Part shown: positions 7,929 to 55,806 of the stretch, piece by piece | Position numbering within the stretch: position 1 is the stretch's first letter | How the letters are laid out: every line of letters begins with the position of its first letter | From: Candidatus Nomurabacteria bacterium | GTDB taxonomy: Bacteria > Patescibacteriota > Minisyncoccia > Phycocordibacterales > UBA918 | DNA: 64,000 bases | Assembly: GCA_020632135.1 (NCBI GenBank) | Contig: JACKGC010000001.1 | Coordinates: forward strand, 180,241 to 244,240 | Direction: 5' to 3' | The notes under the pieces: model-generated | Seen by the model: only the letters and a program-made list of their open reading frames with translations | What the model was told of the DNA's origin: nothing | The model's database searches: none | Position numbers and translations under genes: made by a program

Positions 7929-8324
7929 CTAAGACACAAGATGTCTGTACTCTGGGTAGTGTCCAGCAATTAGTCGTTTCCACTCAGTGGTTTCATTGCG
8001 ACCAGGCAGATCATTCTTGTTATACACCAGCAAGATCCTTACCACTTTCTCTTCAACCAAGCAGACTGCTATACACCGATTACCCGAAGTTTTTGCGGAC
8101 ACACCACTCCCTACAACCGCAAACTCTGACTTAATGATTTGCACACCGTCGGTTTCACAAATGACATTTGCTCGTTTCTTTTCCAGCAAGTTATCGACGC
8201 GTTCATACATGGCCCGTATCGCATCTTCTGTAAGATCCCAGTTTTGCTTGTACTTTTTACGAAACTTTTTGATAAAGTGTCGCTCCGCAAAATCTTCAAT
8301 AACGACCGTATACAACCCGTGCAT
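7929..8324 (-). CDS. RelE/ParE-superfamily-like toxin (TA module 2)
   Basis: 131 aa. FIKKFRKKYKQN, SGNRCIAVCLVEEKVVRILLVYNKND pattern. Lies 5 nt downstream of the second Panacea antitoxin. Confidence 0.5.
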   Translation of the reverse strand: MHGLYTVVIEDFAERHFIKKFRKKYKQNWDLTEDAIRAMYERVDNLLEKKRANVICETDGVQIIKSEFAVVGSGVSAKTSGNRCIAVCLVEEKVVRILLVYNKNDLPGRNETTEWKRLIAGHYPEYRHLVS

Positions 8325-8329
8325 GAGAC

Positions 8330-9022
8330 TTAGAAGATATTATCTGGATCCTCTTGTGTAATGAGAGAATAAGGGATGATTTCGTTTTCATGACAAATGG
8401 CCCAAGGTAGCTGGTTGTGGGTAAAATTCACCAACTCACTACCTCGCTTTCCTTTCCAGTGACTAGAGATCTTGTGAATCAACTCCTCTTCCTCATTTGA
8501 AATGGCAGAAAACTTCTGTGCCTTGTTACTTGTGGATTCGTGGTAGGTATATGAAACCTTATCACCGTCATCCATTGTAGTGACTGTTATCTTCCCCTCC
8601 TCTTCTAATTCTAGGAGGGCTCGGAAATACATGTCCGGAACCGGACCGTATGGGAGGCGTCGGTACAACATACCGCTCATGCTTTCTAGATGATAGTAAA
8701 ACCATGCAAAGTCAGCCAAATATACGAGCTTGGCAAGTTTTGTGCGTCTGATCCCAGCTTTCCCACTGTCTCGTAAATACAACAAGATCATCTGTTTGTA
8801 TTTTTCAAAATTAGCCACCATACCAAGCTCGAGCTCTTCCATAGAAACACCGAGCACTCCAGAAAGTACATCAAACTCACTGACTGTTAGTTCACGACTT
8901 CCCTTCTCTACGGCAATGTAGGTGGGGCGTGACATGCCAAGCTTCTTGGCCACTTCGTCTTGAGTCAGCCCTCGAGCTTCACGCACATTTTTAATTGTTT
9001 GGCTATACTTTGTCTTAGTCAT
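8330..9022 (-). CDS. XRE-HTH + Panacea/DUF4065 antitoxin (TA module 2)
   Basis: HTH (RGLTQDEVAKKLGMSRPTYIAVEKG) plus TKLAKLVYLADFAWFYY...YGPVPDMY. Start taken at MTKTKYSQ (9022). Confidence 0.7.
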   Translation of the reverse strand: MTKTKYSQTIKNVREARGLTQDEVAKKLGMSRPTYIAVEKGSRELTVSEFDVLSGVLGVSMEELELGMVANFEKYKQMILLYLRDSGKAGIRRTKLAKLVYLADFAWFYYHLESMSGMLYRRLPYGPVPDMYFRALLELEEEGKITVTTMDDGDKVSYTYHESTSNKAQKFSAISNEEEELIHKISSHWKGKRGSELVNFTHNQLPWAICHENEIIPYSLITQEDPDNIF

Positions 9023-9038
9023 AAGACAAAGTATAGCC
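9001..9038. promoter_or_regulatory. 38-bp perfect palindrome spanning the -10 box and start codon of antitoxin 2
   Basis: GGCTATACTTTGTCTTA-GTCA-TAAGACAAAGTATAGCC. On the minus strand, TTGACA-N16-TATACT lies 8 nt before the ATG. Confidence 0.6.
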
Positions 9039-9235
9039 AAAATGTAAAGAATGTCAACTTCACAAGTATGGATATTTGACATCAAATATCCTACTGGGGT
9101 AAAATACCAAAGAAGGCGGGGCGCCTACGCGCCCCGCCTTCCCAAACAAACAGACCTAAGATCTGTTGCTCCTACTATAGCTGGTAGTACAAACAACAGC
9201 AAGGGTCATTTATCCGATAGCCTTGTTACGACAGT

Positions 9236-9442
9236 ATGTTCTACTACGTAAACAAAAACGCCCAGCCAACTTCGTACGATCATGAGGTGCACACCAAGAC
9301 TTGCTCTTGGCTCCCTGCCCCAGAAAATCGAATCTTTCTCGGCGACTTCAGCAGCTGTGCCGCAGCTGTCCGTGAAGCAAAGAAGCACTACTCCGACACC
9401 AACGGATGCTACTACTGCTCGAATCCGTGCCACACCACTTAA
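9236..9442 (+). CDS. small Cys/His-rich hypothetical protein
   Basis: 68 aa with HEVHTKTC...NGCYYCSNPCHTT. Followed by the terminator at 9458-9491. Confidence 0.5.
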   Translation: MFYYVNKNAQPTSYDHEVHTKTCSWLPAPENRIFLGDFSSCAAAVREAKKHYSDTNGCYYCSNPCHTT

Positions 9443-9457
9443 CCGTGTGACCATAGA

Positions 9458-9491
9458 CCAAAAAGACTGACCTGAAGGTCAGTCTTTTTGG
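9458..9491. terminator. bidirectional terminator CCAAAAAGACTGACC-TGAA-GGTCAGTCTTTTTGG
   Basis: 15-bp perfect stem between convergent genes. Confidence 0.8.
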
Positions 9492-9630
9492 TCTATTTTG
9501 TTGAGATCTTTTTTGTTGCTCACAAACTAATTCGAGATTAGCCTTGATGACCAAAATACTCTCGCAAATCAGCCTGCGAAATACACTGACCCTACCCGAC
9601 CTTCACAACATGCAATATACCTCTCAATAT

Positions 9631-12024
9631 TCACTTCAAAAATCCCAACTCGAATACTTGCGGTCGGATTTTGTCACTGAGTGTTCTGTAGGCTGTTTCA
9701 AATTCAGTAAACGATACCGGTGGCACGTCACCAGCATCATTACGTCGTTTAAGCGTATTTCGGATTTGGTACCAACCGACATCAGGACGATTCAACTTCA
9801 ACTCCTCCCGAACTGTATACGGATCGGTGTGTTTGAAATATTCGCTCCAAAGTTCGCGTCCACGCGCGAGCACCTCGGTTGCTTCGAGCGACCACTCCTT
9901 CTCTGCCATGTACCGCACCATAAAGTCACTCTCGAAGCGCTCGGGCGCACCGACCTGCTGCTCAGTAAACGGAATAAAGTGATTGACAATACTCCACTTC
10001 TTTTCATTCCACTCTAAATCATTGGCGCTCGCGGTAAGATTGCTGCTATTGAACAACATCCAGACCAGACAATCATTTTTGAACTCCTCTGTCAGCTCAT
10101 CACTTGGCTGCAAGAACTGATCGCGGTCGTTTTGCCAAGTTGGCTTAATGATGCGGCGGACAGTAAACAGCACTGCAATTTCTTCAAGATTATGCGTATT
10201 TATGTAATATCCACCACTTGCACCATATGCGCGAGAGGAAAGAATCCAAGTTCCGTTTGCGTGCTGCACGTCATTACCTAGTGCGGTCAAGTATGCAACA
10301 GCACCATCTGACCATCTTTTCTTATCATGTTTTAAAGTTGGAGAAACCGCATTTGTCAAAGGAATGACTTCTGTTTTGTTTGATTTTGGTTTTTCAACCC
10401 ATGCGTTGAGCATGTGCTTATTAGGCACGTTGACAAATATCTTGTTACCAATTGGGCGAGCCTCAAAATCTAGTACGCTTGTTTTAATTTCTTTAATTTG
10501 ACTTAGGTAACCATCACCATGACTAGTCTGCCATACTAAAAAACCTATAGGAAAGGTACCTTTAATACCATCAAAGGATCTGGCTGGCACAATAAAACCT
10601 CCAATATATTCTGAATCCCACTTTTTCCTAAATGCTTCAAAAAAGGGCGCATTTACATATTTTAGAGTGCTAAACATGGCTAATGTTGCGTGTGGAATCT
10701 CCTTAGAAATTCGTACCACAAATTGTGTAAACAGCTCTCTAGTGGCGGAACCATAGCCATCCATCATAGTTTCAGCAACTCGTGTTTTTGCAACACCCTT
10801 CTTATTTTGTGCCCTTTCAGTACTTGAAATGTTATCTGCATTCATCGCTTCTGCATACGGCGGATTGATTAGTACTAAAATCTTCTTGCCACTTTTAATC
10901 GCGCGGCGAAGCGATTCGGGAATCTTATTGGTGAGACTATAGTCAATCTGCCCGTCGTCGGTAACATCATCATTGAGGTAATCATACTGGAATCGCTCCG
11001 CTGCAACACAAGTTTTGGTCGCTTTCATGACGTCAATATCAGCTTGATCAAGCGTGCTCATGTATATATTACGGTGATTACTATGCTTTATCTCCAAATT
11101 CCCTACACCACAACACATATCCCACACTAAATATTCGTCCTGCCACCCTTCACCCAGCGTTTCTGTTAGTTTGTCATAGGCTGCGTCCACCACATGTAGC
11201 GGTGTGTAGTATGCACCTTTAAAACTTCGCTCATCAAGTGGAATAAGGCTATCGCGACGTTCAAGCAAATAGTTTCGATATTCTTCTTTCGGTGGCTTGT
11301 GGTAAATAGCCCAGAAACGTCGATAACCTTCCTTGTTACCAAGCTCGTAGAGCTTTCCGCCAAGCGAGAACACTGGCGTTCCGTCTTTATGCAACAATTC
11401 CGCCGGCATATCCTTTACCGAGGACACTGTGCCGTCATGCATAATATCCGCGAAGAAAAGGAGCGCGTAGTCTTCTTCTGGCACATCAGCCAATTCACGA
11501 CCAATCATTTCTACCCAACGGTCGAAAACTTGCTTCAGGTTGCTTGGTGTAATCTGCGTGCGAATAATCTCACCCTGTTTAATGGCGTTTTTTACCGCAT
11601 CAATAAACTCTTGCTCGTGTGTCTTTATATTAAAGGACACCATATAGGTACCAATGTAGGCCGACACCGCAGCAAGCGCTTCTGGAGTAACATCACTCGC
11701 TGATTTTCCCCATTTAATATCCTTACGTTCCAAAATCGGCATCGCATCAATCGTTTTCATGATGGCCGCTTTTCCTACATCAATAACTGCCAAGAATGGT
11801 GGTAATTCTTCACCATGATCAAGCCACTCTTTTGCATAATGGAGTAACTGTGTGAACATCTCAAAACTGGTGTGAGTATGACCAGCTTTAGCCTCAAACC
11901 AAATTTCTTTAGTTTGAATGTCAATCAAACCTTTTTGATACTTCTTGAGGCCAAGTGCCTTTATGTAGAGATCCTTCACATCTTCCTCGCTCGAGGCAGT
12001 CTGTAGAGATTCATAGAGTGACAT
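9631..12024 (-). CDS. fused PD-ExK endonuclease / N6-adenine DNA methyltransferase (MmeI-like type IIG/IIL candidate)
   Basis: N-terminal LIDIQTKEIWFEAK (D-x8-ExK, as in MmeI). Methyltransferase motif I VWDMCCGVGNLE and motif IV LINPPYAEA. Long C-terminal region is a possible target-recognition domain. Start taken at MSLYESLQ (12024). Confidence 0.65.
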   Translation of the reverse strand: MSLYESLQTASSEEDVKDLYIKALGLKKYQKGLIDIQTKEIWFEAKAGHTHTSFEMFTQLLHYAKEWLDHGEELPPFLAVIDVGKAAIMKTIDAMPILERKDIKWGKSASDVTPEALAAVSAYIGTYMVSFNIKTHEQEFIDAVKNAIKQGEIIRTQITPSNLKQVFDRWVEMIGRELADVPEEDYALLFFADIMHDGTVSSVKDMPAELLHKDGTPVFSLGGKLYELGNKEGYRRFWAIYHKPPKEEYRNYLLERRDSLIPLDERSFKGAYYTPLHVVDAAYDKLTETLGEGWQDEYLVWDMCCGVGNLEIKHSNHRNIYMSTLDQADIDVMKATKTCVAAERFQYDYLNDDVTDDGQIDYSLTNKIPESLRRAIKSGKKILVLINPPYAEAMNADNISSTERAQNKKGVAKTRVAETMMDGYGSATRELFTQFVVRISKEIPHATLAMFSTLKYVNAPFFEAFRKKWDSEYIGGFIVPARSFDGIKGTFPIGFLVWQTSHGDGYLSQIKEIKTSVLDFEARPIGNKIFVNVPNKHMLNAWVEKPKSNKTEVIPLTNAVSPTLKHDKKRWSDGAVAYLTALGNDVQHANGTWILSSRAYGASGGYYINTHNLEEIAVLFTVRRIIKPTWQNDRDQFLQPSDELTEEFKNDCLVWMLFNSSNLTASANDLEWNEKKWSIVNHFIPFTEQQVGAPERFESDFMVRYMAEKEWSLEATEVLARGRELWSEYFKHTDPYTVREELKLNRPDVGWYQIRNTLKRRNDAGDVPPVSFTEFETAYRTLSDKIRPQVFELGFLK

Positions 12025-23453: not shown

Positions 23454-23491
23454 AAAACCGGCCGGGCCCCTTCGGGGCCCGGCCGGTTTTT
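23454..23491. terminator. bidirectional terminator AAAACCGGCCGGGCCCC-TTCG-GGGCCCGGCCGGTTTTT
   Basis: 13-bp GC stem with a UUCG loop. A 37-nt stretch is identical to 35758-35794. Confidence 0.85.
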
Positions 23492-28026: not shown

Positions 28027-28060
28027 AAAACGGCCGGCCCCTTTGGGGCCGGCCGTTTTT
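28027..28060. terminator. bidirectional terminator AAAACGGCCGGCCCC-TTTG-GGGCCGGCCGTTTTT
   Basis: GC stem between convergent genes. Confidence 0.85.
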
Positions 28061-35757: not shown

Positions 35758-35794
35758 AAACCGGCCGGGCCCCTTCGGGGCCCGGCCGGTTTTT
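35758..35794. terminator. bidirectional terminator, 37 nt identical to 23455-23491
   Basis: AAACCGGCCGGGCCCCTTCGGGGCCCGGCCGGTTTTT. Confidence 0.85.
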
Positions 35795-39235: not shown

Positions 39236-39562
39236 TTATGCAGCCTTAGCAGCCTTAGCAGCTGCAATTTCTGCCTCTTTCTTCTTCTGATCAAGTTCCT
39301 TCTGCATCTTACCTCCGTGGCGCCAGAACTTCTTGGTTGGTGAGAATTCACCGAACTTGTGGCCCACCATTTCTTCTGCGACCAGTACTTCAATATGATC
39401 GCGGCCGTTGTGTACACCAAAGGTGAACCCTACCATTTCTGGAGAGATCACTGAGCCTCGAGCCCAGGTCTTGATGACACCACCCTCTCCGGGTTTCTTT
39501 CCGACAATCTTTTTGAGGAGACGTTCGTCTACGTACGGTCCCTTGTATAGTGATCGTGACAT
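39236..39562 (-). CDS. rpsS: 30S ribosomal protein S19 with Lys/Ala-rich C-terminal tail
   Basis: [12 protein letters not shown]...[10 protein letters not shown]...[10 protein letters not shown] is uS19. The tail reads [16 protein letters not shown]. Confidence 0.95.
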
Positions 39563-40111
39563 TTAAGTGAAACAAGGAGAGCAACGACTATGTTGAACTT
39601 ACGTCCCAATTTCGGTCTTTCTTCTTACAGAAGCTGTTCAGGTTGTCGTTGCTTACGCAACAGACAACCTCTTGCGAAGTGGCATCAAGCCACTTCTCAC
39701 CCGCCCGAAATTGCTGGACGCCGTCGCAGAGTCGCTACTCTCTCTATTTAATTGTTAGTAAATACCGCTTGTAGTTAGCAGTTTTGCGCAGGCTAAAGCC
39801 TTGGGTGCAAAACCACCGTCAGTGGCGGCTTGTGATATTCCCGAGCAGTCCGGTAACGGCCTGACTACTCTTGTGGTCACCTACTTCGTTCTTATTTCAT
39901 GCGCTTCCTGCCAGGGAAACGACTTGAGGTTGGAACCCGCATAGAGTACCAAAAAGTACTGGAAAGTCAATGAATACATTTTTAGGGTGACAACTAAATA
40001 CGTGCCCAACGCACCACATATTTTATGTGACTATTGTAATTACGTTACGACAGAGGTAGATTTGTAGCAGCTAAATAGCTCTTCCGTTCATCACAAAGAG
40101 GTACTGTCCCA

Positions 40112-41545
40112 ATGGGCATTAAAGCTCGTAAAGATAAAAAACTGTTCGTCCTTGATACCAACGTGCTGATGCACGACCCGACCGCGCTGTTCCGCTTTGC
40201 GGAGCATGACGTCTTCCTCCCGATGGTCGTCCTTGAGGAACTGGACCGCGCAAAGAAAGGCACCTCTGAAGTCGCACGCAACTCACGCCAGGTTAGCCGC
40301 TTTCTCGACGAACTGATGCAAAAGAGAAACGGGAACTCTATGGACAATGGACTACCACTCTCTTCCTGCATCGAAGGTAACGGGCATTTGAGCAATGATG
40401 CTCCGGCCCTCGACTGCGGTCATCTGTTCTTTCAGACCCAGCTGCAACCAAAAAACCTCCCTGTCCAACTAACCGGGAATGGGAACTCGCCCGACAACAA
40501 TATCCTTGGCACTGCACTGGCACTCGCTGAGATGGCGCCTGACCGTAAAATTACGTTGGTCTCCAAAGACATCAACTTGCGTATCAAGGCCGCTGTCGTC
40601 GGCATCCACACGGAGGACTACCACAACGACCAGGTACTGGACGACGTCAACTTGCTCTACAGCGGCCAGTCGGCGCTGCCAACGGATTTCTGGGAGACAC
40701 ACAGCAAGGAGATCGACTCATGGCAAGAGGGCGGCCACACCTTCTACAAAGCATCCGGCCCAGATACCGCCGAGTGGTATGTCGGCCAGTGTTTGTACAT
40801 GGCAGGCGATCAGCCGTTCGAGGCGATCGTGCGACGCAAGGAAGGCGATGGTGCGATCATCGAGTTGGTCAACAACTACCGTTCTGAAAAGCATGCGGTG
40901 TGGGGCATCAACGCTCGTAACCGCGAGCAAAACTTCGCTCTCAACCTGCTGATGGACCCCGAGATCGACTTCGTTTCATTGCTCGGCACCGCCGGTACCG
41001 GCAAGACGCTCCTTGCTCTTGCCGCTGGCTTGGCTCAGGTACTGGATAAAAATATCTACCGCGAGATCATCATGACGCGCGTCACGGTGCCCGTCGGCGA
41101 AGATATAGGCTTCCTGCCGGGCACTGAAGAGGAAAAGATGACACCTTGGATGGGCGCACTCATGGACAATCTCGAAGTGCTCACGAAGACCGAGGGAGGA
41201 GACTGGGGCCGTGCCGCCACCGACGATCTGCTGCGTTCACGCATCAAGATCCATTCACTCAACTTTATGCGTGGTCGCACCTTCCTTAAGAAGTACCTCA
41301 TCCTTGACGAGGCACAAAACCTCACCCCGAAGCAGATGAAGACACTCGTCACTCGTGCCGGCCCCGGCACCAAGATCGTCTGCCTCGGCAACGTCGCACA
41401 GATTGACACGCCGTACCTGACCGAAACCACCTCTGGTCTCACCTACGTGGTCGACCGGTTCAAGGACTGGCCGCATGGAGGCCACATCACGCTGCTGCGT
41501 GGGGAACGTTCACGGCTGGCGGACTTTGCGTCTGATCAGTTGTGA
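40112..41545 (+). CDS. PIN-domain + PhoH-like ATPase (YlaK family), GC3-rich
   Basis: N-terminal PIN (FVLDTNVLMHDP...VVLEELD). Walker A LLGTAGTGKT, then ILDEAQNLTP and GNVAQID. Third codon positions are strongly G/C. Confidence 0.85.
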   Translation: MGIKARKDKKLFVLDTNVLMHDPTALFRFAEHDVFLPMVVLEELDRAKKGTSEVARNSRQVSRFLDELMQKRNGNSMDNGLPLSSCIEGNGHLSNDAPALDCGHLFFQTQLQPKNLPVQLTGNGNSPDNNILGTALALAEMAPDRKITLVSKDINLRIKAAVVGIHTEDYHNDQVLDDVNLLYSGQSALPTDFWETHSKEIDSWQEGGHTFYKASGPDTAEWYVGQCLYMAGDQPFEAIVRRKEGDGAIIELVNNYRSEKHAVWGINARNREQNFALNLLMDPEIDFVSLLGTAGTGKTLLALAAGLAQVLDKNIYREIIMTRVTVPVGEDIGFLPGTEEEKMTPWMGALMDNLEVLTKTEGGDWGRAATDDLLRSRIKIHSLNFMRGRTFLKKYLILDEAQNLTPKQMKTLVTRAGPGTKIVCLGNVAQIDTPYLTETTSGLTYVVDRFKDWPHGGHITLLRGERSRLADFASDQL

Positions 41546-41690
41546 GCAACACCAGTTCCTATTCATTGTGAAAATGCAACCCTCTCCACCTTACCTTGCA
41601 ATGAGGTGAGTTCGAAAGAGTATTTTGTCACATCATTGGCCGGAAGCGCTCGCGCTTCCGGCCTTTTCTTTTTGTGTTACCCTACCCCAT

Positions 41691-42008
41691 ATGCCCAGAA
41701 ACCGCGGACGCGAACATTCCACCCTCACCGAAACAGCCGATTTGGTCGTGCGTGAGCTAGAAAAAATACCTGGAATAAAAATGATCGCGCCAGGCGAGAT
41801 CCGCACCAATGCCCGCAGCGCGAGCGGGCGGTTTGTGACGTGTGTGTACACGACCGCTGGCTTTGAGCTCATCATCAGTGGTCAGAGCGCGCAGAAAGTC
41901 GCGGTACACACTACTTCTAATGCACGCGCCGTTTTCGCAGCGCTCAAAGCCAGCAAAAAATTACGCGAGTTTGTGTTTAAGGAACGGGAGCGCAAGCCGG
42001 GAGAATAA
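41691..42008 (+). CDS. hypothetical 105-aa protein
   Basis: Start taken at MPRNRGREH. Followed by the terminator at 42013-42051. No SD. Confidence 0.45.
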   Translation: MPRNRGREHSTLTETADLVVRELEKIPGIKMIAPGEIRTNARSASGRFVTCVYTTAGFELIISGQSAQKVAVHTTSNARAVFAALKASKKLREFVFKERERKPGE

Positions 42009-42012
42009 GAGG

Positions 42013-42051
42013 CAAGCGCTGGCCGGGCGCTTCGCGCCCGGCCAGCGCTTG
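42013..42051 (+). terminator. 18-bp-stem hairpin CAAGCGCTGGCCGGGCGC-TTC-GCGCCCGGCCAGCGCTTG
   Basis: Member of the CCGGGCGC family. A U-rich stretch follows. Confidence 0.7.
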
Positions 42052-42084
42052 TCGTTGTTACCGAAGAGAGTATCATAGATACAT

Positions 42085-42528
42085 ATGTGGAAACGGACAC
42101 AACCAAAGATCTTTATGGTAGAGGATGATCGCAATAATCACCCCCTGTTCCGCAAGGTCTTTGAAGCTGCCGGATTTGCGGTCACCATTCGCCGCACCGC
42201 GGACGGTGATTTTATTGAAGATGTAGTCAAGTCTGGACCAGACATCATCTCAATGGATATCATGATCGGGAAATCGGGGGCTGATGTAGAACGTGACGGC
42301 CTTGAAGCAGGAAGGCTGCTAAAGGCTGATGAACGCACAGCACAAATTCCGATCATGATCTTGACCAACTTCTTTGTGGACGAAAAGGTGCAACAAGCTA
42401 AAGCTTTCGGTGCGGTGGACTTCATTAGCCTGCAAGGTCACGCCATCGCTACAATTCCAGAGATCTTCAAGCGCTACCTTGATGCCCCGAGAAAATTCAT
42501 ACCCACCCATCCGCTATTGCAGCAATGA
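42085..42528 (+). CDS. stand-alone CheY-like response-regulator receiver
   Basis: IFMVEDD...DIISMDIMIG...IMILTN...AVDFISL fits the receiver fold with acidic pocket and acceptor Asp. No output domain. Confidence 0.75.
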   Translation: MWKRTQPKIFMVEDDRNNHPLFRKVFEAAGFAVTIRRTADGDFIEDVVKSGPDIISMDIMIGKSGADVERDGLEAGRLLKADERTAQIPIMILTNFFVDEKVQQAKAFGAVDFISLQGHAIATIPEIFKRYLDAPRKFIPTHPLLQQ

Positions 42529-42559
42529 AAAGGCCGGCCCCAAAGGGGCCGGCCTTTTC
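42527..42559. terminator. bidirectional terminator GAAAAGGCCGGCCCC-AAA-GGGGCCGGCCTTTTC
   Basis: Lies between convergent genes. Confidence 0.85.
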
Positions 42560-42568
42560 ATCTTCATC

Positions 42569-44083
42569 CTACAACTCCGCCATCGCCTCATCAATGAGAT
42601 CTTCGATCTCTTCGACGAGATCCAATACCTCATCCCAATCTTCGTCTTCAAAAGCATCTTCCGCGTCATTCAAGAGGTCATCTGCCTCATCCAAAATACC
42701 TTCCGCTTTCTTGGTACTCTTACCCGCGTCGTCGGCATCATACACTTCGTCCCAGGCCTCATCAAGCGCTTTGTCGATATCCTCAAGCGCTTCGTCTGCC
42801 TCGTCTTCATCTTCATCAGAAGAACCCCCGATCGCGTCGATCGCTTCGTCGATCAAGTCCTCTGCCTCTTCTGCCTGGTCGATCGCTTCCTCATAATCTT
42901 CTTCGTCGATAGCGATGTCAGCCCGCTTCAGGGCTCGCTCCGCGTCATCTAGCAGATCTTGGGCGTCCTCGACATCCTCGCCGTCCTCATCAGCTTCGTC
43001 GATCTCCTCCTCAGCTGCATCAAAGTCATCCCACACATCTTCAACGTACTTTTCTGCGTCTTTGTCTGAAATAAAGTCGATCTCATCGAGCGCGTCTTCA
43101 AGCAACTCTTCCGCATCGAGCGCGTCGCTCTTGGCTTGACGGTACACTCGCTCCTCAAATGCGTCCTTTGCATCATCAAGGAGATCTTCTGCCTCCCCGA
43201 TCAGCTCTTCGGCGTCACCAGTATCTTCGTCCTTGTCTTCAGCCTCATCAAAGAGATCCTGTACTTCCTCGAGCAGATCATCAACATCATCAATAATGTC
43301 TTCTGCTTCACTTGCCTCAGATTCACCGCCAGCGTCCTCGTACGCATCTGTCGCATCATCCAGAGCGGTCACTGCTGTTTCCTCAGCTTCAGCGAAGTCT
43401 CCATCGAAATAGCTCTCCAGAGCCTCAAACAGAGACTCAATGACATCACGAACATCTTCATCGATGTCCAACGCCTCATCTGGGTCATCGTCACGTAGGT
43501 CGTCAAGCTCATCATACGTGTTGAGAATAAGGTCCATTGCATCGCTAATGAGTTGCTCCGCGTCCGTTTGCGTCTTGCTCTTGGCCGAGGTTGAGATGCC
43601 CGCCACTTGCGGCGCTGGTGTCGTGACCGTAGCCGGAAGCGTTGGCTGTGGCGTGGCAGCATTGAGCTGTGACTGTAGATCATCAACTAAGCTGAGAAGT
43701 CGCTCAGCTTCAGTCTGTGCCACTGCAGAACCCGCTCCGACCACTTCCTGATACTTCGCCTGCGAAACTGAACCAAAGATACCGATGGCCGGAGAAACAT
43801 CATGATCTGCTTGCCACTTGGCTACGGCTTCACGAGTGAGTGAACCGTATTTGTCGGTCTCATTACCGGGTGACCCTGGCCCTTCGGCGGTGAGCTCGTA
43901 GCCATTAGCATTAAGGTACTCCTGCAGACAGCGCACGCTCTCGTCGATCACACCAACCTCAAGCGTTTGCGAAAACGTACAAGTGTTGGCCTGCGCATAA
44001 AATACAAATGGTGCGCTAAAAAGTAACGCAACGGCTAGACAAATAAATGAGACACGCGATCGAATGGAAACGGACAGGTTCAT
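42569..44083 (-). CDS. secreted peptidoglycan-binding-domain protein with roughly 320-aa hyper-acidic repeat region
   Basis: Signal peptide. PG_binding_1-like segment (VRCLQEYLNANGY...LTREAVAKWQADHDV). Then Asp/Glu-dominated repeats such as AEDLLDDAKDAFEE and AQDLLDDAERAL. Confidence 0.8.
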   Translation of the reverse strand: MNLSVSIRSRVSFICLAVALLFSAPFVFYAQANTCTFSQTLEVGVIDESVRCLQEYLNANGYELTAEGPGSPGNETDKYGSLTREAVAKWQADHDVSPAIGIFGSVSQAKYQEVVGAGSAVAQTEAERLLSLVDDLQSQLNAATPQPTLPATVTTPAPQVAGISTSAKSKTQTDAEQLISDAMDLILNTYDELDDLRDDDPDEALDIDEDVRDVIESLFEALESYFDGDFAEAEETAVTALDDATDAYEDAGGESEASEAEDIIDDVDDLLEEVQDLFDEAEDKDEDTGDAEELIGEAEDLLDDAKDAFEERVYRQAKSDALDAEELLEDALDEIDFISDKDAEKYVEDVWDDFDAAEEEIDEADEDGEDVEDAQDLLDDAERALKRADIAIDEEDYEEAIDQAEEAEDLIDEAIDAIGGSSDEDEDEADEALEDIDKALDEAWDEVYDADDAGKSTKKAEGILDEADDLLNDAEDAFEDEDWDEVLDLVEEIEDLIDEAMAEL

Positions 44084-44153
44084 ATCAATACTAAATATTA
44101 TGAGTAGTTGCTTTCATTGTATCAGATTTCTTCCCATTGCTACCGCACAGACA

Positions 44154-44342
44154 TCACTGCTCGCAGAGCAGCTGGTAGGGATGGGACTTACCAATATGGT
44201 GCTGAGCAACAGCAGTCGCAGCAACGGAACTCACGCACTGATAACGGCCAGCTTCGTGGGCCAGCACACCATTAGCAACCTTCATTACTCCGATCACGAG
44301 GACAAAACCAATAATCAAAAAAACATTGCGAGCTGATCTCAT
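44154..44342 (-). CDS. possible 62-aa small membrane protein
   Basis: MRSARNVFLIIGFVLVIGVMKV... has one TM helix. No SD. Weak call. Confidence 0.25.
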   Translation of the reverse strand: MRSARNVFLIIGFVLVIGVMKVANGVLAHEAGRYQCVSSVAATAVAQHHIGKSHPYQLLCEQ

Positions 44343-44488
44343 TGAGATAGAACATGACTTACGTGGGACCGCTTGTTTGTAAGAGTGGGAGTAATAGCCT
44401 ACCAAGCAGACACGAAAACTGTAATGGCAGTGACGTTGATAACCAGCTCGTCTGAGCACTTTCACCATGAAGCAGCGATACGTCAAAC

Positions 44489-44525
44489 AAGATCGGCCGG
44501 GCCCCGAAAGGGCCCGGCCGATCTT
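44489..44525. terminator. hairpin AAGATCGGCCGGGCCC-CGAAA-GGGCCCGGCCGATCTT after rplB
   Basis: 16-bp stem of the GGCCGGGCCC family. Confidence 0.65.
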
Positions 44526-44546
44526 ACTTTTACGACACCAACACCA

Positions 44547-45407
44547 CTACTTGCTACCTCGCATCAAGCGACCTGGCTTGCGACGAGAAACAATGAGTTT
44601 GTTGCTGTACTTCTTCGGTGAACGAGTCTTCTGCCCCTTTCCGGTTGGTCGACCCTGCTTGGTGCGCTGGCGTCGGTGTCCTCGTGGAGAACGTCCTTCA
44701 CCACCACCATGTGGGTGATCCACGGCGTTACGAGCGCTACCACGGTTCTTCGGACGAAGTCCCATGTGACGCGCGCGCCCCGCCTTACCAATACTCACGA
44801 GTCGATACTCCTCGTTCGACACCTCACCAACTGAAGCCCAGGCGGTGTTTTGCACCTTACGGATCTCAGTTGATGGCATCTTGAGCGTTGTATGCTTGCT
44901 GTCTTGGGCAACGACTTCAATCGCGTTACCAGCCGAACGACCAAGCTTTGCTCCTGCTCCTGGGTTGATCTCGACGTTATACACGAAAGTACCAACTGGA
45001 ATAGCAGCAAGTGGTAAACGGTTACCCGTCTTGATCTTCGCCTTCTCTGAAACGATGATCTCATCCCCCGCCTCAAGCTTCTGCGGCGCAAGGATGTAGC
45101 GACGCTCACCATCGGCGTAACACACGAGCGCAATGAAACCAGAGCGGTTTGGATCATACTCAATGGTCTCTACCTTAGCTGGTACATCCTTCTTTTCGAA
45201 CTTGAAGTCGATCTCGCGGAAGGTACGCTTGTTACCAGCGCCACGATAGTGGGTAGTAATACGACCCGCACTGTTGCGACCACCGGTACTCTTCTTACCC
45301 TTGGTAAGCTTCTTCAGCGGCTTGCTTGCCGTACTGGTGAGCTTCTTCTTGTACTCGATCACCGAGCCGTCACGACGACCCGCTGATGTTGGTTTATACT
45401 TTTTCAT
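44547..45407 (-). CDS. rplB: 50S ribosomal protein L2
   Basis: MKKYKPTSAGRR...GGRNSAGRITTHYRGAG...HPHGGGEG is uL2. Confidence 0.97.
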   Translation of the reverse strand: MKKYKPTSAGRRDGSVIEYKKKLTSTASKPLKKLTKGKKSTGGRNSAGRITTHYRGAGNKRTFREIDFKFEKKDVPAKVETIEYDPNRSGFIALVCYADGERRYILAPQKLEAGDEIIVSEKAKIKTGNRLPLAAIPVGTFVYNVEINPGAGAKLGRSAGNAIEVVAQDSKHTTLKMPSTEIRKVQNTAWASVGEVSNEEYRLVSIGKAGRARHMGLRPKNRGSARNAVDHPHGGGEGRSPRGHRRQRTKQGRPTGKGQKTRSPKKYSNKLIVSRRKPGRLMRGSK

Positions 45408-50496: not shown

Positions 50497-50524
50497 ATAG
50501 TACCAAAGACGGGATATTTTGCAA
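50497..50524 (-). promoter_or_regulatory. promoter TTGCAA-N16-TACTAT (minus strand)
   Basis: Good -35 and -10 immediately after the fusA terminator. Confidence 0.5.
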
Positions 50525-50565
50525 GGAAAACGGCCGGCCCCGAAGGGGCCGGCCGTTTTCCTTGC
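50521..50565 (-). terminator. fusA terminator GCAAGGAAAACGGCCGGCCCC-GAA-GGGGCCGGCCGTTTTCCTTGC
   Basis: 21-bp stem. Confidence 0.85.
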
Positions 50566-54146: not shown

Positions 54147-55265
54147 CTAGTCGATCTCGAGATCAAGCTCTGACTCAAGCTCAGCAGAGGTAAGTCCCGT
54201 ACGCAATGCCACTTCTGCAATCAGCGCTGCTTTAGTGGTGTACACCGTGTTGTACTCCAGCTTCTTACTTCCGTACTCAACGCGCACCTCCGCTTTTAGC
54301 CCTTCAACCCGTACTTCAAACTTTTTGATACTACCATTCCACTCAGTATCGTCGTCAGAATCATCTTCGTCATGGTCTCGGCCTCGGTGGTCGTCGTCAT
54401 CGTCTTCCCACTCTTCTTCGTCTTCAAACTCCCATTCATCTTCGTCCTCATACTCCTCTTCCCACTTGTCTTCGTAGTCGTCATCATGGTCACCGAAGTT
54501 TGTAGATACCGACTCTTCTGCCTGCACGCCGGCCTTTGACCCCTGAGCGTCTTGCTCTCTAACTTGTACACGTACGTCACCGTCATCATCAATTCGTAAC
54601 CTGAAGCCGTCGTCACGCACCTCGATCCGATCATCTTTGATCTCTACTCGAGTATTGTCTTCAGTTTGTACATTTGTGGTCGTTTCACTTCGGCCAGCGA
54701 TCTTTACTTTATCGATGTCTGCCTGCAGTTCAGTCAGGATCTGGACCCGGATATCACGGTCATCGAAATCTTCTAGTGAGTCCAATACGGCAGTGACGGC
54801 CTTGGCGATGCGCTCCTCGCCGCTTTCGCGCACAGTAACTGAAGCTGAAGTTGATGCACTTGAAGATGCGGCCACTTCAGCTTCGGTCGACTCCGTTTCT
54901 TCACTAATGATCTCACGCAGCTCAGCCAGGCGTTCAGCGGAGAACTGCGCGCGAAGCTCCGCTTCGCGCGCCTCGCCGGCAAAGGCAAGTTGTACGCGTT
55001 CAGCCGCTCGCTCGATCGGGAACAAGAGGTCTCCTGGCTTAGCGTCGTTTGACGCTGCAACGGTGCCAGTGGTGCCAACTATTACTACTAAGGCTACAAG
55101 TACTCCGGTCATGGTTTTAGTTCGTGAATGAATGAAGGCAGCGTATGGTGACGGAGTTGGTGCGGCCACCTTGGCTTCGATCACCCGCAACACCGCAGCC
55201 TTCTCTTCCGCAGAGAGTGTCGGTCGTTCTTTTTCTATTCGGTTGTCTAGATCATCATTCGACAT
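54147..55265 (-). CDS. putative membrane-anchored anti-sigma factor with poly-acidic Trp-punctuated tract
   Basis: Starts 7 nt after the ECF sigma gene. One TM helix (TGVLVALVVIVGTTGTVAA). Tract DHDDDYEDKWEEEYEDEDEWEFEDEEEWEDDDDD. Confidence 0.6.
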   Translation of the reverse strand: MSNDDLDNRIEKERPTLSAEEKAAVLRVIEAKVAAPTPSPYAAFIHSRTKTMTGVLVALVVIVGTTGTVAASNDAKPGDLLFPIERAAERVQLAFAGEAREAELRAQFSAERLAELREIISEETESTEAEVAASSSASTSASVTVRESGEERIAKAVTAVLDSLEDFDDRDIRVQILTELQADIDKVKIAGRSETTTNVQTEDNTRVEIKDDRIEVRDDGFRLRIDDDGDVRVQVREQDAQGSKAGVQAEESVSTNFGDHDDDYEDKWEEEYEDEDEWEFEDEEEWEDDDDDHRGRDHDEDDSDDDTEWNGSIKKFEVRVEGLKAEVRVEYGSKKLEYNTVYTTKAALIAEVALRTGLTSAELESELDLEID

Positions 55266-55272
55266 GGCGATG

Positions 55273-55806
55273 TTATGCGTTAAGGATCGAAGCCAGTGCC
55301 GCGCGAGCGCGATGATGGCGCACCCGTACCGCAGACTCCTTCATATTAATAATGGTTCCTATTTCAGCAAACGTGAACCTCGACCAGTGGTGCAGTACCA
55401 CGATCTCGCGCGAAACGTCGTCGAGTGTTTCGAGTGCCTGAGTGACTGAACAGTTCTGTTCTACAGCTGACTCTGCGCTACCATGCCACTCTTCCTGCAA
55501 CTCGGCCGTTTCGTGCTTCTTGGTCTTGGCGTAGTATGCAGCTAACTGGCGGCGTACGATCGTAAAGAGAAACGAGTAGAACGCTGCGTCAGACTGATAG
55601 GTAAACCGGGGCAGGGACTTGTAGAGCTCTATGAACACATCCTGGGTAACCTCTCTCGCGTCCTCATGAGAATTGGTGCGAAACGCAACAAACGAAAAGA
55701 CGCGATCGACAGTGTGTTCATAGAGCGCAGCAAATCCCTGACTGGTATCAGCCACTGCGTGATTCACTAATGCTTTTATTTCGATTGACTCCATGGTGTC
55801 ATTCAC
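55273..55806 (-). CDS. ECF-type RNA polymerase sigma-70 factor
   Basis: Region 2 (AREVTQDVFIELYKSL) and region 4 (FAEIGTIINMKESAVRVRHHRA). Confidence 0.85.
   Translation of the reverse strand: MNDTMESIEIKALVNHAVADTSQGFAALYEHTVDRVFSFVAFRTNSHEDAREVTQDVFIELYKSLPRFTYQSDAAFYSFLFTIVRRQLAAYYAKTKKHETAELQEEWHGSAESAVEQNCSVTQALETLDDVSREIVVLHHWSRFTFAEIGTIINMKESAVRVRHHRARAALASILNA

Follow-up and report, generated by a model that had tools for sequence, protein, structure and literature searches.

What could be the function of a protein that is apparently exported, carries a peptidoglycan-binding domain and then consists, over some 320 residues, of almost one half aspartate and glutamate? This question is raised by an ORF on the minus strand of a 64,000-nt stretch of genomic DNA (hereafter the window) from a Candidatus Nomurabacteria bacterium (contig JACKGC010000001.1, positions 180,241 to 244,240). 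The initial annotation, made from the sequence alone, described a secreted peptidoglycan-binding protein with a hyper-acidic repeat array and suggested several roles for it. The features discussed below are located in Table 1.

The acidity was confirmed by the composition analysis. Asp plus Glu (D+E) make up 32.7% of the whole 504-aa protein, and over aa 181-504 (324 aa) D+E reaches 45.4% with K+R at 4.9% and a net charge of -139. The other long ORFs in the window (n = 59) reach at most 26.6% D+E, with a median of 11.9%, and their median pI is 7.85; therefore, the acidity is a property of this gene and not of the whole proteome, and the same values rule out a halophile-style acidic proteome.

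A region of this kind might be low-complexity or degenerate DNA rather than a gene, or might hide a true gene on the opposite strand, as it is overlapped by long Ser/Ile/Phe-rich antisense ORFs (42374-42952, 42525-42896, 42915-43139, 43136-43498 and 43440-43751, all on the plus strand). This reading is refuted by the conservation data. Our searches found 148 homologues, the top one being 57% identical across 100% of the length, and 256 relatives were recovered from species-representative genomes. The ORF is intact at 83 of 83 related loci, without the frameshifts or stop codons by which the initial annotation had proposed that its own reading could fail. Furthermore, conservation is heptad-specific, the Pfam domains lie in the minus-strand frame, which is the conserved one, and the fold predicted by AlphaFold2 (AF2) is confident. 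The antisense ORFs, already dismissed as genes in the initial annotation, are long because a gene rich in GAN codons casts an expected stop-free shadow. The gene is real and conserved in tiny-genome Patescibacteria.

Table 1. Location of the gene, its predicted protein parts and the flanking signals in the window
Feature	Position	Strand	Remarks
Complete CDS, secreted PG-binding hyper-acidic protein	42569..44083	-	ATG start, 504 aa plus stop
Predicted signal peptide, aa 1-32	43988..44083	-	n-region R8/R10; hydrophobic core 11-29; AQA 30-32
PG_binding_1 domain, aa 33-119	43727..43987	-	PF01471 match; invariant Cys35 and Cys52
Flexible linker, aa 120-169	43577..43726	-	amphipathic helix 125-142, then Pro/Thr/Ala-rich TPQPTLPATVTTPAPQVAGISTSAKSK
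Acidic module U0, aa 170-250	43334..43576	-	three-helix unit, the most divergent of the four; net charge -28; unit HMM 27.1 bits at aa 171-249; AF2 helices 170-199, 201-226, 230-250
Acidic module U1, aa 251-339	43067..43333	-	net charge -32; non-acidic patch RVYRQAxSDAxDAEELLEDA; unit HMM 66.3 bits at aa 256-334; AF2 helices 256-283, 291-310, 314-334
Acidic module U2, aa 340-419	42827..43066	-	net charge -34; site of the DUF4398 match of the window protein; unit HMM 71.3 bits at aa 340-417; AF2 helices 340-366, 372-393, 397-418
Acidic module U3, aa 420-504	42572..42826	-	distal, most acidic unit; net charge -33; unit HMM 68.0 bits at aa 425-502; AF2 helices 424-452, 458-479, 483-503
Promoter-like element	44097..44125	-	CTGATA-17-CATAAT; extended -10-like TGATACAAT at 44116-44124
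Strong hairpin directly after rplB (L2)	44489..44525	-	16-bp perfect palindrome; -38.3 kcal/mol, z = -7.4
Putative bidirectional intrinsic terminator	42525..42561	.	AAAAGGCCGGCCCC-loop-GGGGCCGGCCTTTT; 17-bp perfect palindrome, A and T tracts; -35.3 kcal/mol, z = -6.7

The N-terminal part of the protein is predicted to direct it out of the cell and to the wall, as initially annotated. In the Kyte-Doolittle analysis (19-aa window), the maximum of 2.27 was found at the hydrophobic core of the signal peptide. No window after residue 33 exceeds 0.69; thus there is no second membrane segment, which places the acidic array outside the cell. The N-termini of the homologues are equivalent and end in AxA-type motifs. 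The following domain matches PF01471 at aa 48-95 with 34.2 bits (E = 2.8e-08; Pfam gathering threshold 23), and all 76 homologues compared match this family as well (best E = 2.1e-23). The two cysteines are invariant across the 76 sequences, from which we infer a Cys35-Cys52 disulfide that would stabilise the domain. The AF2 model gave helices 48-59, 81-93 and 105-119 at pLDDT 96-98, that is, a small three-helix domain, with a signal peptide ahead of it and no transmembrane segment behind it, as is characteristic of extracytoplasmic PG_binding_1 domains. An endolysin family of the PHROG collection matches aa 47-144. By score, the domain is a bona fide member of the family found in endolysins, amidases and L,D-transpeptidases; in the known proteins it usually brings a catalytic domain to the wall, whereas in the window protein it carries an acidic helical array that is no enzyme. 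The linker between the two has pLDDT values of 45-70, with residues 143-163 below 50.

The initial annotation had regarded the acidic region as an array of short recurring amphipathic units forming a probably helical polymer on the cell wall. Its helical and repetitive nature was upheld by the periodicity and structure analyses, but the short units were not: the 12-16-aa stretches are parts of single helices, and the true repeat period is about 80-85 aa, corresponding to three helices. A unit HMM built from the family detected four units with 27-71 bits (Table 1). A model seeded on the last unit alone gave 36 and 58 bits for the other two full units, and its top score on the shuffled acidic region (n = 200) was 5.4 bits. 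The AF2 model (mean pLDDT 88.4) contains twelve helices arranged as four three-helix units with 5-residue loops between them. As modelled, the array is composed of four discrete DUF4398-like modules of about 80 aa, each about 4 nm long, with short Gly hinges linking them into a string of beads.

The modules are old. The only direct repeats that Tandem Repeats Finder detected at the DNA level were three trivial rows of 9-12 nt. Orthologous units are 34-53% identical and paralogous units 28-39%, which indicates that each module is conserved in its position across species. A recent tandem duplication of the DNA was rejected on these grounds and on the identity of 28-42% between units within one protein. 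Within the modules, a conserved Ala/Leu heptad forms the core and nearly all solvent-exposed positions are Asp or Glu. Among 347 units from 121 proteins, the core heptad positions are 0% acidic, and most of the exposed positions are 45-93% D/E. In the 4-unit proteins D+E climbs from 32% in U0 to 48% in U3. The window array carries about 147 carboxylates, roughly -30 of net charge per module. Two elements are conserved apart from this pattern. The C-terminal hinge of U0, EDAGGES, is invariant in the close subfamily at D250, A251, G252, G253 and E254 and is found in 49 of 199 family members overall, and in U1 the residues Y314, Q316 and S319 are nearly invariant in the close-subfamily alignment.

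To our searches against solved structures the array returned little. The single-sequence search found no relative of solved structure, and the unit profile matched nothing but designed proteins of the TPR and helical-bundle types (8-9 bits per repeat). The modules are not TPR repeats, as only helices B and C resemble the consensus and each repeat spans about 80 aa and three helices, unlike the 34-aa units of a TPR solenoid. Foldseek gave nothing significant against the PDB (best E = 0.016, mostly designed helical bundles), the weaker matches including the natural bundles of vinculin, alpha-catenin and EzrA (4uy3). Chains of antiparallel three-helix bundles are also present in spectrin-like repeats, EzrA, S. 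aureus Ebh/Emb and the N-terminal domain of SbsC, all of which are far less acidic than the window array. A continuous connecting helix is typical of spectrin, whereas Gly-containing loops lie between the modules here; membership in the spectrin-like repeats was rejected since loops 251-255, 335-339 and 419-423 break helix continuity in the AF2 model and no PDB fold was significant.

The relationship of the modules to DUF4398 emerged at the family level. The window protein itself matches PF14346 at aa 354-414 with 22.1 bits (E = 2.1e-04), below the cutoff of 27.9, and 66 of 76 homologues match it at E < 0.01 (best E = 7e-16). The acidic region alone retrieves the relatives P0125, P0158, P0168, P0174 and P0206 (E = 2.7e-20 to 1.7e-06), all of which pass the PF14346 cutoff with 31-45 bits. 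By this transitive homology the modules can be classed as DUF4398-like. They resemble the module of DUF4398 proteins such as the 13-kDa PA2901 of P. aeruginosa, except that the window protein has four copies in tandem and these are hyper-acidic. The Leptospira protein LipL71/LruA likewise combines DUF4398 with a peptidoglycan-binding domain, LysM (PMC5406399), whereas the window protein is anchored by PG_binding_1 and by neither LysM nor lipid. DUF4398 has no known function; here it recurs beside peptidoglycan-binding modules.

The family, represented by 161 clusters among 1.84 billion proteins, is confined to the Patescibacteria group. The complete genome CP060229.1 is among the carriers of the gene, its homologue being 57% identical. 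The window protein has all the family features, namely a signal peptide, a C-x-F motif, the invariant C...CLQxxLN in PG_binding_1, a linker and 2-4 acidic units, and full-length alignments within the close family show 49-57% identity. Members have 2, 3 or 4 modules, with median lengths of 322, 403 and 502 aa, respectively. Acidity differs widely between lineages: array D+E is at least 35% in 158 of 197 members and below 25% in 14 of 197, some having about 10-12% over the whole protein. The scaffold thus works without charge in a minority of the family. In this comparison the array of the window protein has a D+E of 44.7% (family median 41%), and only one of the 197 members has a more negative net charge. 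Its relatives are named only 'peptidoglycan-binding protein' or 'hypothetical' in databases, and among them we found no homologue with a characterised function, including the unrelated defined function that would have spoken against the initial annotation. A literature search found no paper on a patescibacterial family combining PG_binding_1 and an acidic array, DUF4398 appearing only in tables.

In about 20 species the gene lies in an island between L2 and S19 that splits the S10 ribosomal operon, and in 17 loci of this clade a DUF2103 gene is convergent to it; in the other approximately 60 loci no conserved neighbour was found. The hairpin after L2 probably ends the upstream ribosomal transcript. 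With hairpin terminators predicted on both sides, the gene would be a separate transcription unit. The downstream terminator separates it from a convergent response-regulator gene, and it explains the sub-threshold match to the Rfam family Thr_leader on both strands at 42505-42600. The promoter-like element was recognised by consensus match and direct reading, and the consensus match alone is given no functional weight. Co-transcription with the S10 operon was rejected on the hairpin of -38 kcal/mol after L2 together with the gene's own promoter-like element, and expression at the ribosomal level was rejected because codon usage is like that of ordinary genes and unlike that of ribosomal or EF genes. 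Between L2 and the gene, a 110-aa ORF (44154-44486, minus strand) was treated as spurious because it has no Pfam match and no relative in 87 loci.

What, then, might such a protein do at the wall? To our knowledge, every studied Gram-positive wall carries an anionic polymer. In B. subtilis, teichoic acid is replaced by teichuronic acid under phosphate limitation. We tentatively favour, as one possible explanation built on this analogy, that the protein is a peptidoglycan-tethered polyanion that binds cations and sets the surface charge. The protein would be exported by Sec and cleaved probably after AQA32; the PG_binding_1 domain would dock non-covalently on peptidoglycan, and the linker of about 50 residues, rich in Pro and Thr, would likely thread through the wall. 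The four rigid three-helix modules with their Gly-containing hinges would then form a gene-encoded wall polyanion, binding and buffering divalent cations and protons with low affinity and high capacity, and giving the surface a strongly negative, hydrated charge. Folding of the array would probably need counter-ions. The number of modules (2, 3 or 4) and the rise of acidity from the proximal to the distal module may tune the reach and the amount of charge. In this way the array would fill the role that teichoic or teichuronic acids have in ordinary monoderm bacteria. Like these acids, it would be a wall-attached polyanion reaching through and beyond the peptidoglycan; teichoic acids, however, are phosphodiester-linked polyols charged by phosphates, whereas the window protein is a folded polypeptide charged by carboxylates and attached non-covalently. 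CPR cells have been described as monoderm with peptidoglycan (PMC6146748), and for one Patescibacteria genus the use of something else in place of teichoic acids has been inferred (PMC11809585).

The division between a core free of acidic residues and an exposed surface rich in them supports selection for charge. A protein of comparable chemistry is calsequestrin, a low-affinity, high-capacity acidic cation-binding protein that likewise combines extreme Asp/Glu content with the lack of canonical EF-hands and an expected counter-ion-dependent folding; it differs in its thioredoxin-like fold, compartment and lineage, and no homology was detected. Calcium loops of the EF-hand or DxDxDG type were rejected: in the helix A-B loop, DxDxDG was found in 12 of 347 units where shuffles gave 9.4 +/- 2.8, the PROSITE pattern PS00018 for EF-hands was found in 0 of 347, and the window protein has neither. 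Specific Ca2+ motifs are thus not enriched, which counts against the wall polyanion, as do the non-acidic minority of the family, the absence of conserved gene neighbours outside one clade, and the ordinary codon usage, which does not point to the very high expression that a bulk component of the wall should have. Among the roles listed in the initial annotation, general cation capture and surface-charge modulation stay the most plausible.

It is somewhat unlikely, in our estimate, that the array is a structural spacer or scaffold, that is, a docking platform or ruler within the wall zone, which might keep an S-layer, other (basic) proteins or enzymes at a fixed distance from the peptidoglycan. 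Acidity would then mainly keep the rod extended and soluble and attract cationic partners, and would not be there for bulk ion binding. This explanation agrees with the stepwise variation of module number and length, with the existence of non-acidic members, with the relative P0125, in which a GDSL/SGNH hydrolase is inserted into the same scaffold, with the recurrence of DUF4398 near other peptidoglycan-binding domains (e.g. LysM in LipL71, PMC5406399), and with the conserved patch RVYRQAxSD in U1 and the EDAGGES hinge. Weak similarity to wall-associated helical rods and scaffolds points the same way (Emb 6gv8, E = 0.0055; SbsC spectrin-like repeat, YkyA and EzrA in a few members), but these matches are at chance-level significance. 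Furthermore, selection for charge extends over nearly all exposed positions and is not confined to a discrete patch, and no conserved partner gene adjoins outside one clade.

Still more doubtful is a role in surface interaction or protection, in which a polyanionic brush would bind external cationic molecules, either as an adhesin for host cells in an epibiotic lifestyle or as a decoy, the latter being a sink for agents directed against the peptidoglycan, such as phage endolysins, lysozyme-like muramidases or cationic antimicrobial peptides. The extracytoplasmic, wall-anchored location and the greatest acidity in the distal module are consistent with it, as are the restriction to Patescibacteria, whose cultivated members are episymbionts (PMC11623550), and the wide variation of acidity between lineages, such as ecological or conflict selection would give. 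Orthologous modules, however, are 34-53% identical with a strictly kept core and show neither a hypervariable region nor a sign of diversifying selection, no adhesin or defence family was matched, and most Paceibacteria carriers are uncultured.

Highly acidic repeats behind a peptidoglycan-binding domain also occur in the HubP/FimV landmark proteins, which consist of LysM, a single transmembrane helix, highly acidic Asp/Glu-rich repeats and TPR (PMC8789113). The repeats of HubP are cytosolic, lying past the transmembrane helix and drawing cytoplasmic partners, whereas the window array is predicted to be extracytoplasmic. Membership in this type was rejected, as the window protein has no LysM match, a maximum hydropathy of only 0.69 after residue 33 and no detectable sequence relationship.

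The nucleic-acid mimic or decoy also put forward initially, in which carboxylate-covered helices would imitate the DNA backbone and titrate DNA-binding proteins as phage Ocr and ArdA do, fits in composition only (helical, extremely negative) and is very improbable: the protein is predicted to be exported and wall-anchored, away from restriction enzymes, its modules are modelled as three-helix bundles, unlike a DNA-shaped dimer, no viral structure was matched significantly by Foldseek (best E = 0.058), PHROG matches were limited to a weak tail-protein match and the endolysin family with no anti-restriction family, and PADLOC returned nothing for the window protein.

If the array is only a passive spacer, the result is a useful annotation and no surprise. 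In either case, DUF4398 gains a recurring context beside peptidoglycan-binding modules, and the family, with its 2, 3 or 4 modules and its acidity of 10-50%, offers a natural series in which the compatibility of extreme charge with a folded helical bundle can be studied. It is easily testable, because the protein is a single soluble one of about 50 kDa. A large part of bacterial diversity belongs to the Patescibacteria, whose envelopes are almost uncharacterised; for the anionic wall polymer of organisms with genomes below 1 Mb, this family is a concrete candidate. An extension of the wall-polyanion explanation, which we put forward as an unlikely one, is that the essential wall polyanion of monoderm Patescibacteria with reduced genomes is one protein made on the ribosome, which takes the place of the multi-enzyme teichoic-acid pathway and whose module number and acidity are tuned to the habitat.

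The acidic gene starts with ATG and encodes a protein of 504 aa. The initial annotation had pointed to disrupted ORFs in orthologues as the sign of a region not under coding selection; the ORF is intact in 83 of 83 non-redundant loci (median length 409 aa), thus the gene is genuine, and a non-coding locus is excluded. Asp, Glu and Ala make up 17.7%, 15.1% and 13.9% of the residues, respectively; residues 181-504 contain 45.4% D+E versus 4.9% K+R, and the full-length net charge is -139. The 59 other long ORFs in the window have a median pI of 7.85 and a median D+E of 11.9% (maximum 26.6%), which rules out a halophile-style proteome. The N-terminus, with R8 and R10, a hydrophobic core at 11-29 (Kyte-Doolittle 19-aa maximum 2.27) and AQA at 30-32, reads as a predicted signal peptide, in line with the secretion proposed earlier, and all homologues have equivalent N-termini. 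No further hydrophobic segment was found past residue 33 (Kyte-Doolittle at most 0.69 throughout), therefore the entire mature protein is predicted to be extracytoplasmic. C35 and C52, invariant in 76 sequences, may form a disulfide, which would be consistent with export.

The peptidoglycan-binding domain named in the initial annotation was recovered in the Pfam search (PG_binding_1, aa 48-95, 34.2 bits; cutoff 23), and by this score the protein is assigned to PG_binding_1; an NCBIfam search gave no meaningful match. The AlphaFold2 model, built with 76 family sequences, had a mean pLDDT of 88.4, with 392 residues at 90 or above; its pTM was 0.53, so the placement of the domains relative to each other is uncertain. 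The acidic region, expected to be helical, indeed forms helices in this confident model, and its units are joined by loops of five residues each, two of them containing GG. The computation thus gives an exported protein with a PG_binding_1 anchor, a flexible linker and four folded three-helix modules.

To the HMM built from the last unit alone, the other two full units scored 36 and 58 bits, versus a top score of 5.4 bits among 200 shuffles of the acidic region, and a family-trained unit HMM detected four units (27, 66, 71 and 68 bits). The repeat is not detectable at the DNA level. The repetition proposed earlier therefore stands, but the short units do not: the true modules are about 80 aa long, and segments such as AEDLLDDAKDAFEE are the starts of their helix B. 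On the whole, both the observation and its structural interpretation were correct.

Features of the acidic protein (aa) and of the window (nt)
Feature	Position	Remark
PG_binding_1 three-helix domain	helices aa 48-59, 81-93, 105-119	AlphaFold2
Linker	aa 120-169	one amphipathic helix, then Pro/Thr-rich TPQPTLPATVTTPAPQVAGISTSAKSK; low-confidence in AlphaFold2
Four three-helix units, twelve helices	aa 170-250, 256-334, 340-418, 424-503	AlphaFold2
Acidic gene	42569..44083 (-)	
rplB (L2)	44547-45407	island border
rpsS (S19)	39236-39562	island border
Split of S10 operon	39236-45407	normally contiguous
DUF2103 gene	41625-42008 (+)	'predicted metal-binding'; near acidic gene
110-aa ORF	44154-44486 (-)	gap between rplB and acidic gene
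Palindromes (examples)	23454-23490, 28027-28059, 35758-35792, 42525-42561, 44489-44525, 50521-50565	
ECF-type sigma factor	55273-55794	region 54147-55794 (-)
Low-GC stretch	8000-12000	0.43-0.45 vs ~0.52 elsewhere
797-aa ORF	9631-12024 (-)	inside low-GC stretch

A word-indexed search returned 148 homologues, the top ones 57% identical over full length, with Kaiserbacteria, Nomurabacteria, Parcubacteria and Paceibacteria as named sources and "peptidoglycan-binding protein" as the sole annotation. Exhaustive searching of 1.84 billion cluster representatives with the acidic region yielded only 161 clusters (E <= 0.001), nearly all sharing the signal peptide and C-x-F...CLQxxLN N-terminus of the window protein, and 256 relatives were found by scanning one genome per species; every source with a title belongs to the Patescibacteria group. 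The DUF4398 match of the window protein (aa 354-414, 22.1 bits) lies under the Pfam cutoff of 27.9. Since 66 of 76 members match DUF4398 (best E = 7e-16) and farther relatives from the acidic-region search exceed its threshold, the modules are called DUF4398-like by transitive homology, the window protein alone being sub-threshold. At the family level the repeats belong to this domain of unknown function, for which the searched literature held only tables naming PA2901 and LipL71, the latter as a DUF4398 + LysM protein. Within the PG-anchored DUF4398 proteins, the acidic protein represents an uncharacterised variant that is confined to Patescibacteria and extreme in charge. Distant non-acidic DUF4398 relatives of the unit (P0168 and P0243) occur in an archaeal MAG of Candidatus Bathyarchaeota, thus the unit is older and more widespread than the Patescibacteria architecture.

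Like HubP/FimV, the protein combines a PG-binding domain with acidic repeats; in HubP, however, the repeats follow a TM helix and lie in the cytosol (PMC8789113), and the window protein lacks a helix of this kind. An EF-hand protein was ruled out by a motif test, a TPR solenoid by profile comparison, and a spectrin-type rod by the loops separating the modelled units; no significant solved-structure or viral structural relative was found.

The acidic gene lies in an island of about 5 kb that splits the S10 ribosomal operon and whose opposite strand encodes a receiver-domain, a DUF2103 and a PIN-PhoH protein; the DUF2103 protein has no signal peptide. Some 20 species-level genomes of Patescibacteria have the same split (loci L001, L002, L004, L008-L023, L042 and L043); the position between rplB and rpsS and the operon's orientation are kept, but the cargo varies (a toxin-antitoxin pair, SNase, acetyltransferase, PIG-L, pentapeptide protein and PIN-PhoH). 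All of these islands carry the acidic protein, and most carry DUF2103; a convergent DUF2103 gene accompanies the acidic gene in 17 loci (median gap 186 nt). About 60 more distant loci, with the gene located elsewhere, showed no conserved neighbour, the commonest neighbour cluster occurring in 9. Evidence that the gene forms its own transcription unit in this window comes from a hairpin after rplB (-38.3 kcal/mol), a promoter-like element ahead of the ATG, a perfect palindrome with A-tract and T-tract (-35.3 kcal/mol) between the acidic and convergent genes, and codon usage like that of ordinary genes, unlike ribosomal or EF genes. The 110-aa ORF is probably spurious, because it has no Pfam match and none of 87 related loci contains a relative.

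Across the window there are about 30 long, perfect GC-rich palindromes, mostly intergenic (stems 11-21 bp), many with A-tract/T-tract flanks and a common GGCCGG(G)CCCC core; they resemble a family of bidirectional terminators or of REP-like elements spread throughout the genome. The sigma factor gene is followed by one for an anti-sigma-like single-pass membrane protein with DUF5667, whose own acidic low-complexity tract DHDDDYEDKWEEEYEDEDEWEFEDEEEWEDDDDDH is unrelated to the acidic gene. The low-GC stretch may be foreign DNA. Although the window carries a cluster of ribosomal-protein and EF-Tu/EF-G genes, no tRNA gene was found anywhere in its 64 kb, and no Rfam family reached the gathering threshold.

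In 347 units, 92-100% of the residues at heptad core positions are hydrophobic and none is acidic, and most exposed positions are Asp/Glu at 45-93%; the acidic exposed surfaces are under selection across the whole family. Orthologous units (34-53% identity) are closer than paralogous ones (28-39%), thus the modules are old and each has been kept in position. D+E climbs from 32% in the wall-proximal to 48% in the distal unit. Among 197 members, only one of which exceeds the window protein in negative net charge, array D+E has a median of 41%, reaching at least 35% in 158 and staying below 25% in 14, less acidic members being probably under-sampled because the searches used an acidic query.

We infer that the array serves as a protein polyanion tethered to the wall, and tentatively suggest that it buffers Mg2+, Ca2+ and protons and sets the surface charge. 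About 147 carboxylates on a rod of ~16 nm (four ~28-residue helices end to end) would have to recruit counter-ions, probably required for folding, and therefore the array would buffer these ions and make the surface strongly negative and hydrated. Teichoic and teichuronic acids of other monoderms provide such buffering and such a surface. The main rival, a passive spacer or scaffold, seems somewhat unlikely; in its favour, module number varies stepwise (two full units in 34 proteins, three in 75 and four in 12, with median lengths of 322, 403 and 502 aa, respectively), non-acidic relatives exist, and one relative has a GDSL hydrolase within the array. In this relative (P0125, 977 aa, Candidatus Paceibacterota), anchored by PG_binding_1 like the window protein, the GDSL/SGNH domain, possibly a peptidoglycan esterase, is inserted between DUF4398-like units, thus the array is able to carry an enzyme. 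That the array binds outside cationic molecules, as adhesin or decoy, is improbable, and a DNA mimic gained no support from the searches, viral structural comparison included.

CPR cells have been described as monoderm with peptidoglycan (PMC6146748), and one Patescibacteria genus has been inferred to rely on something other than teichoic acids (PMC11809585). Replacement of teichoic acid by the wall-tethered acidic protein is unlikely, though it would be notable if true.
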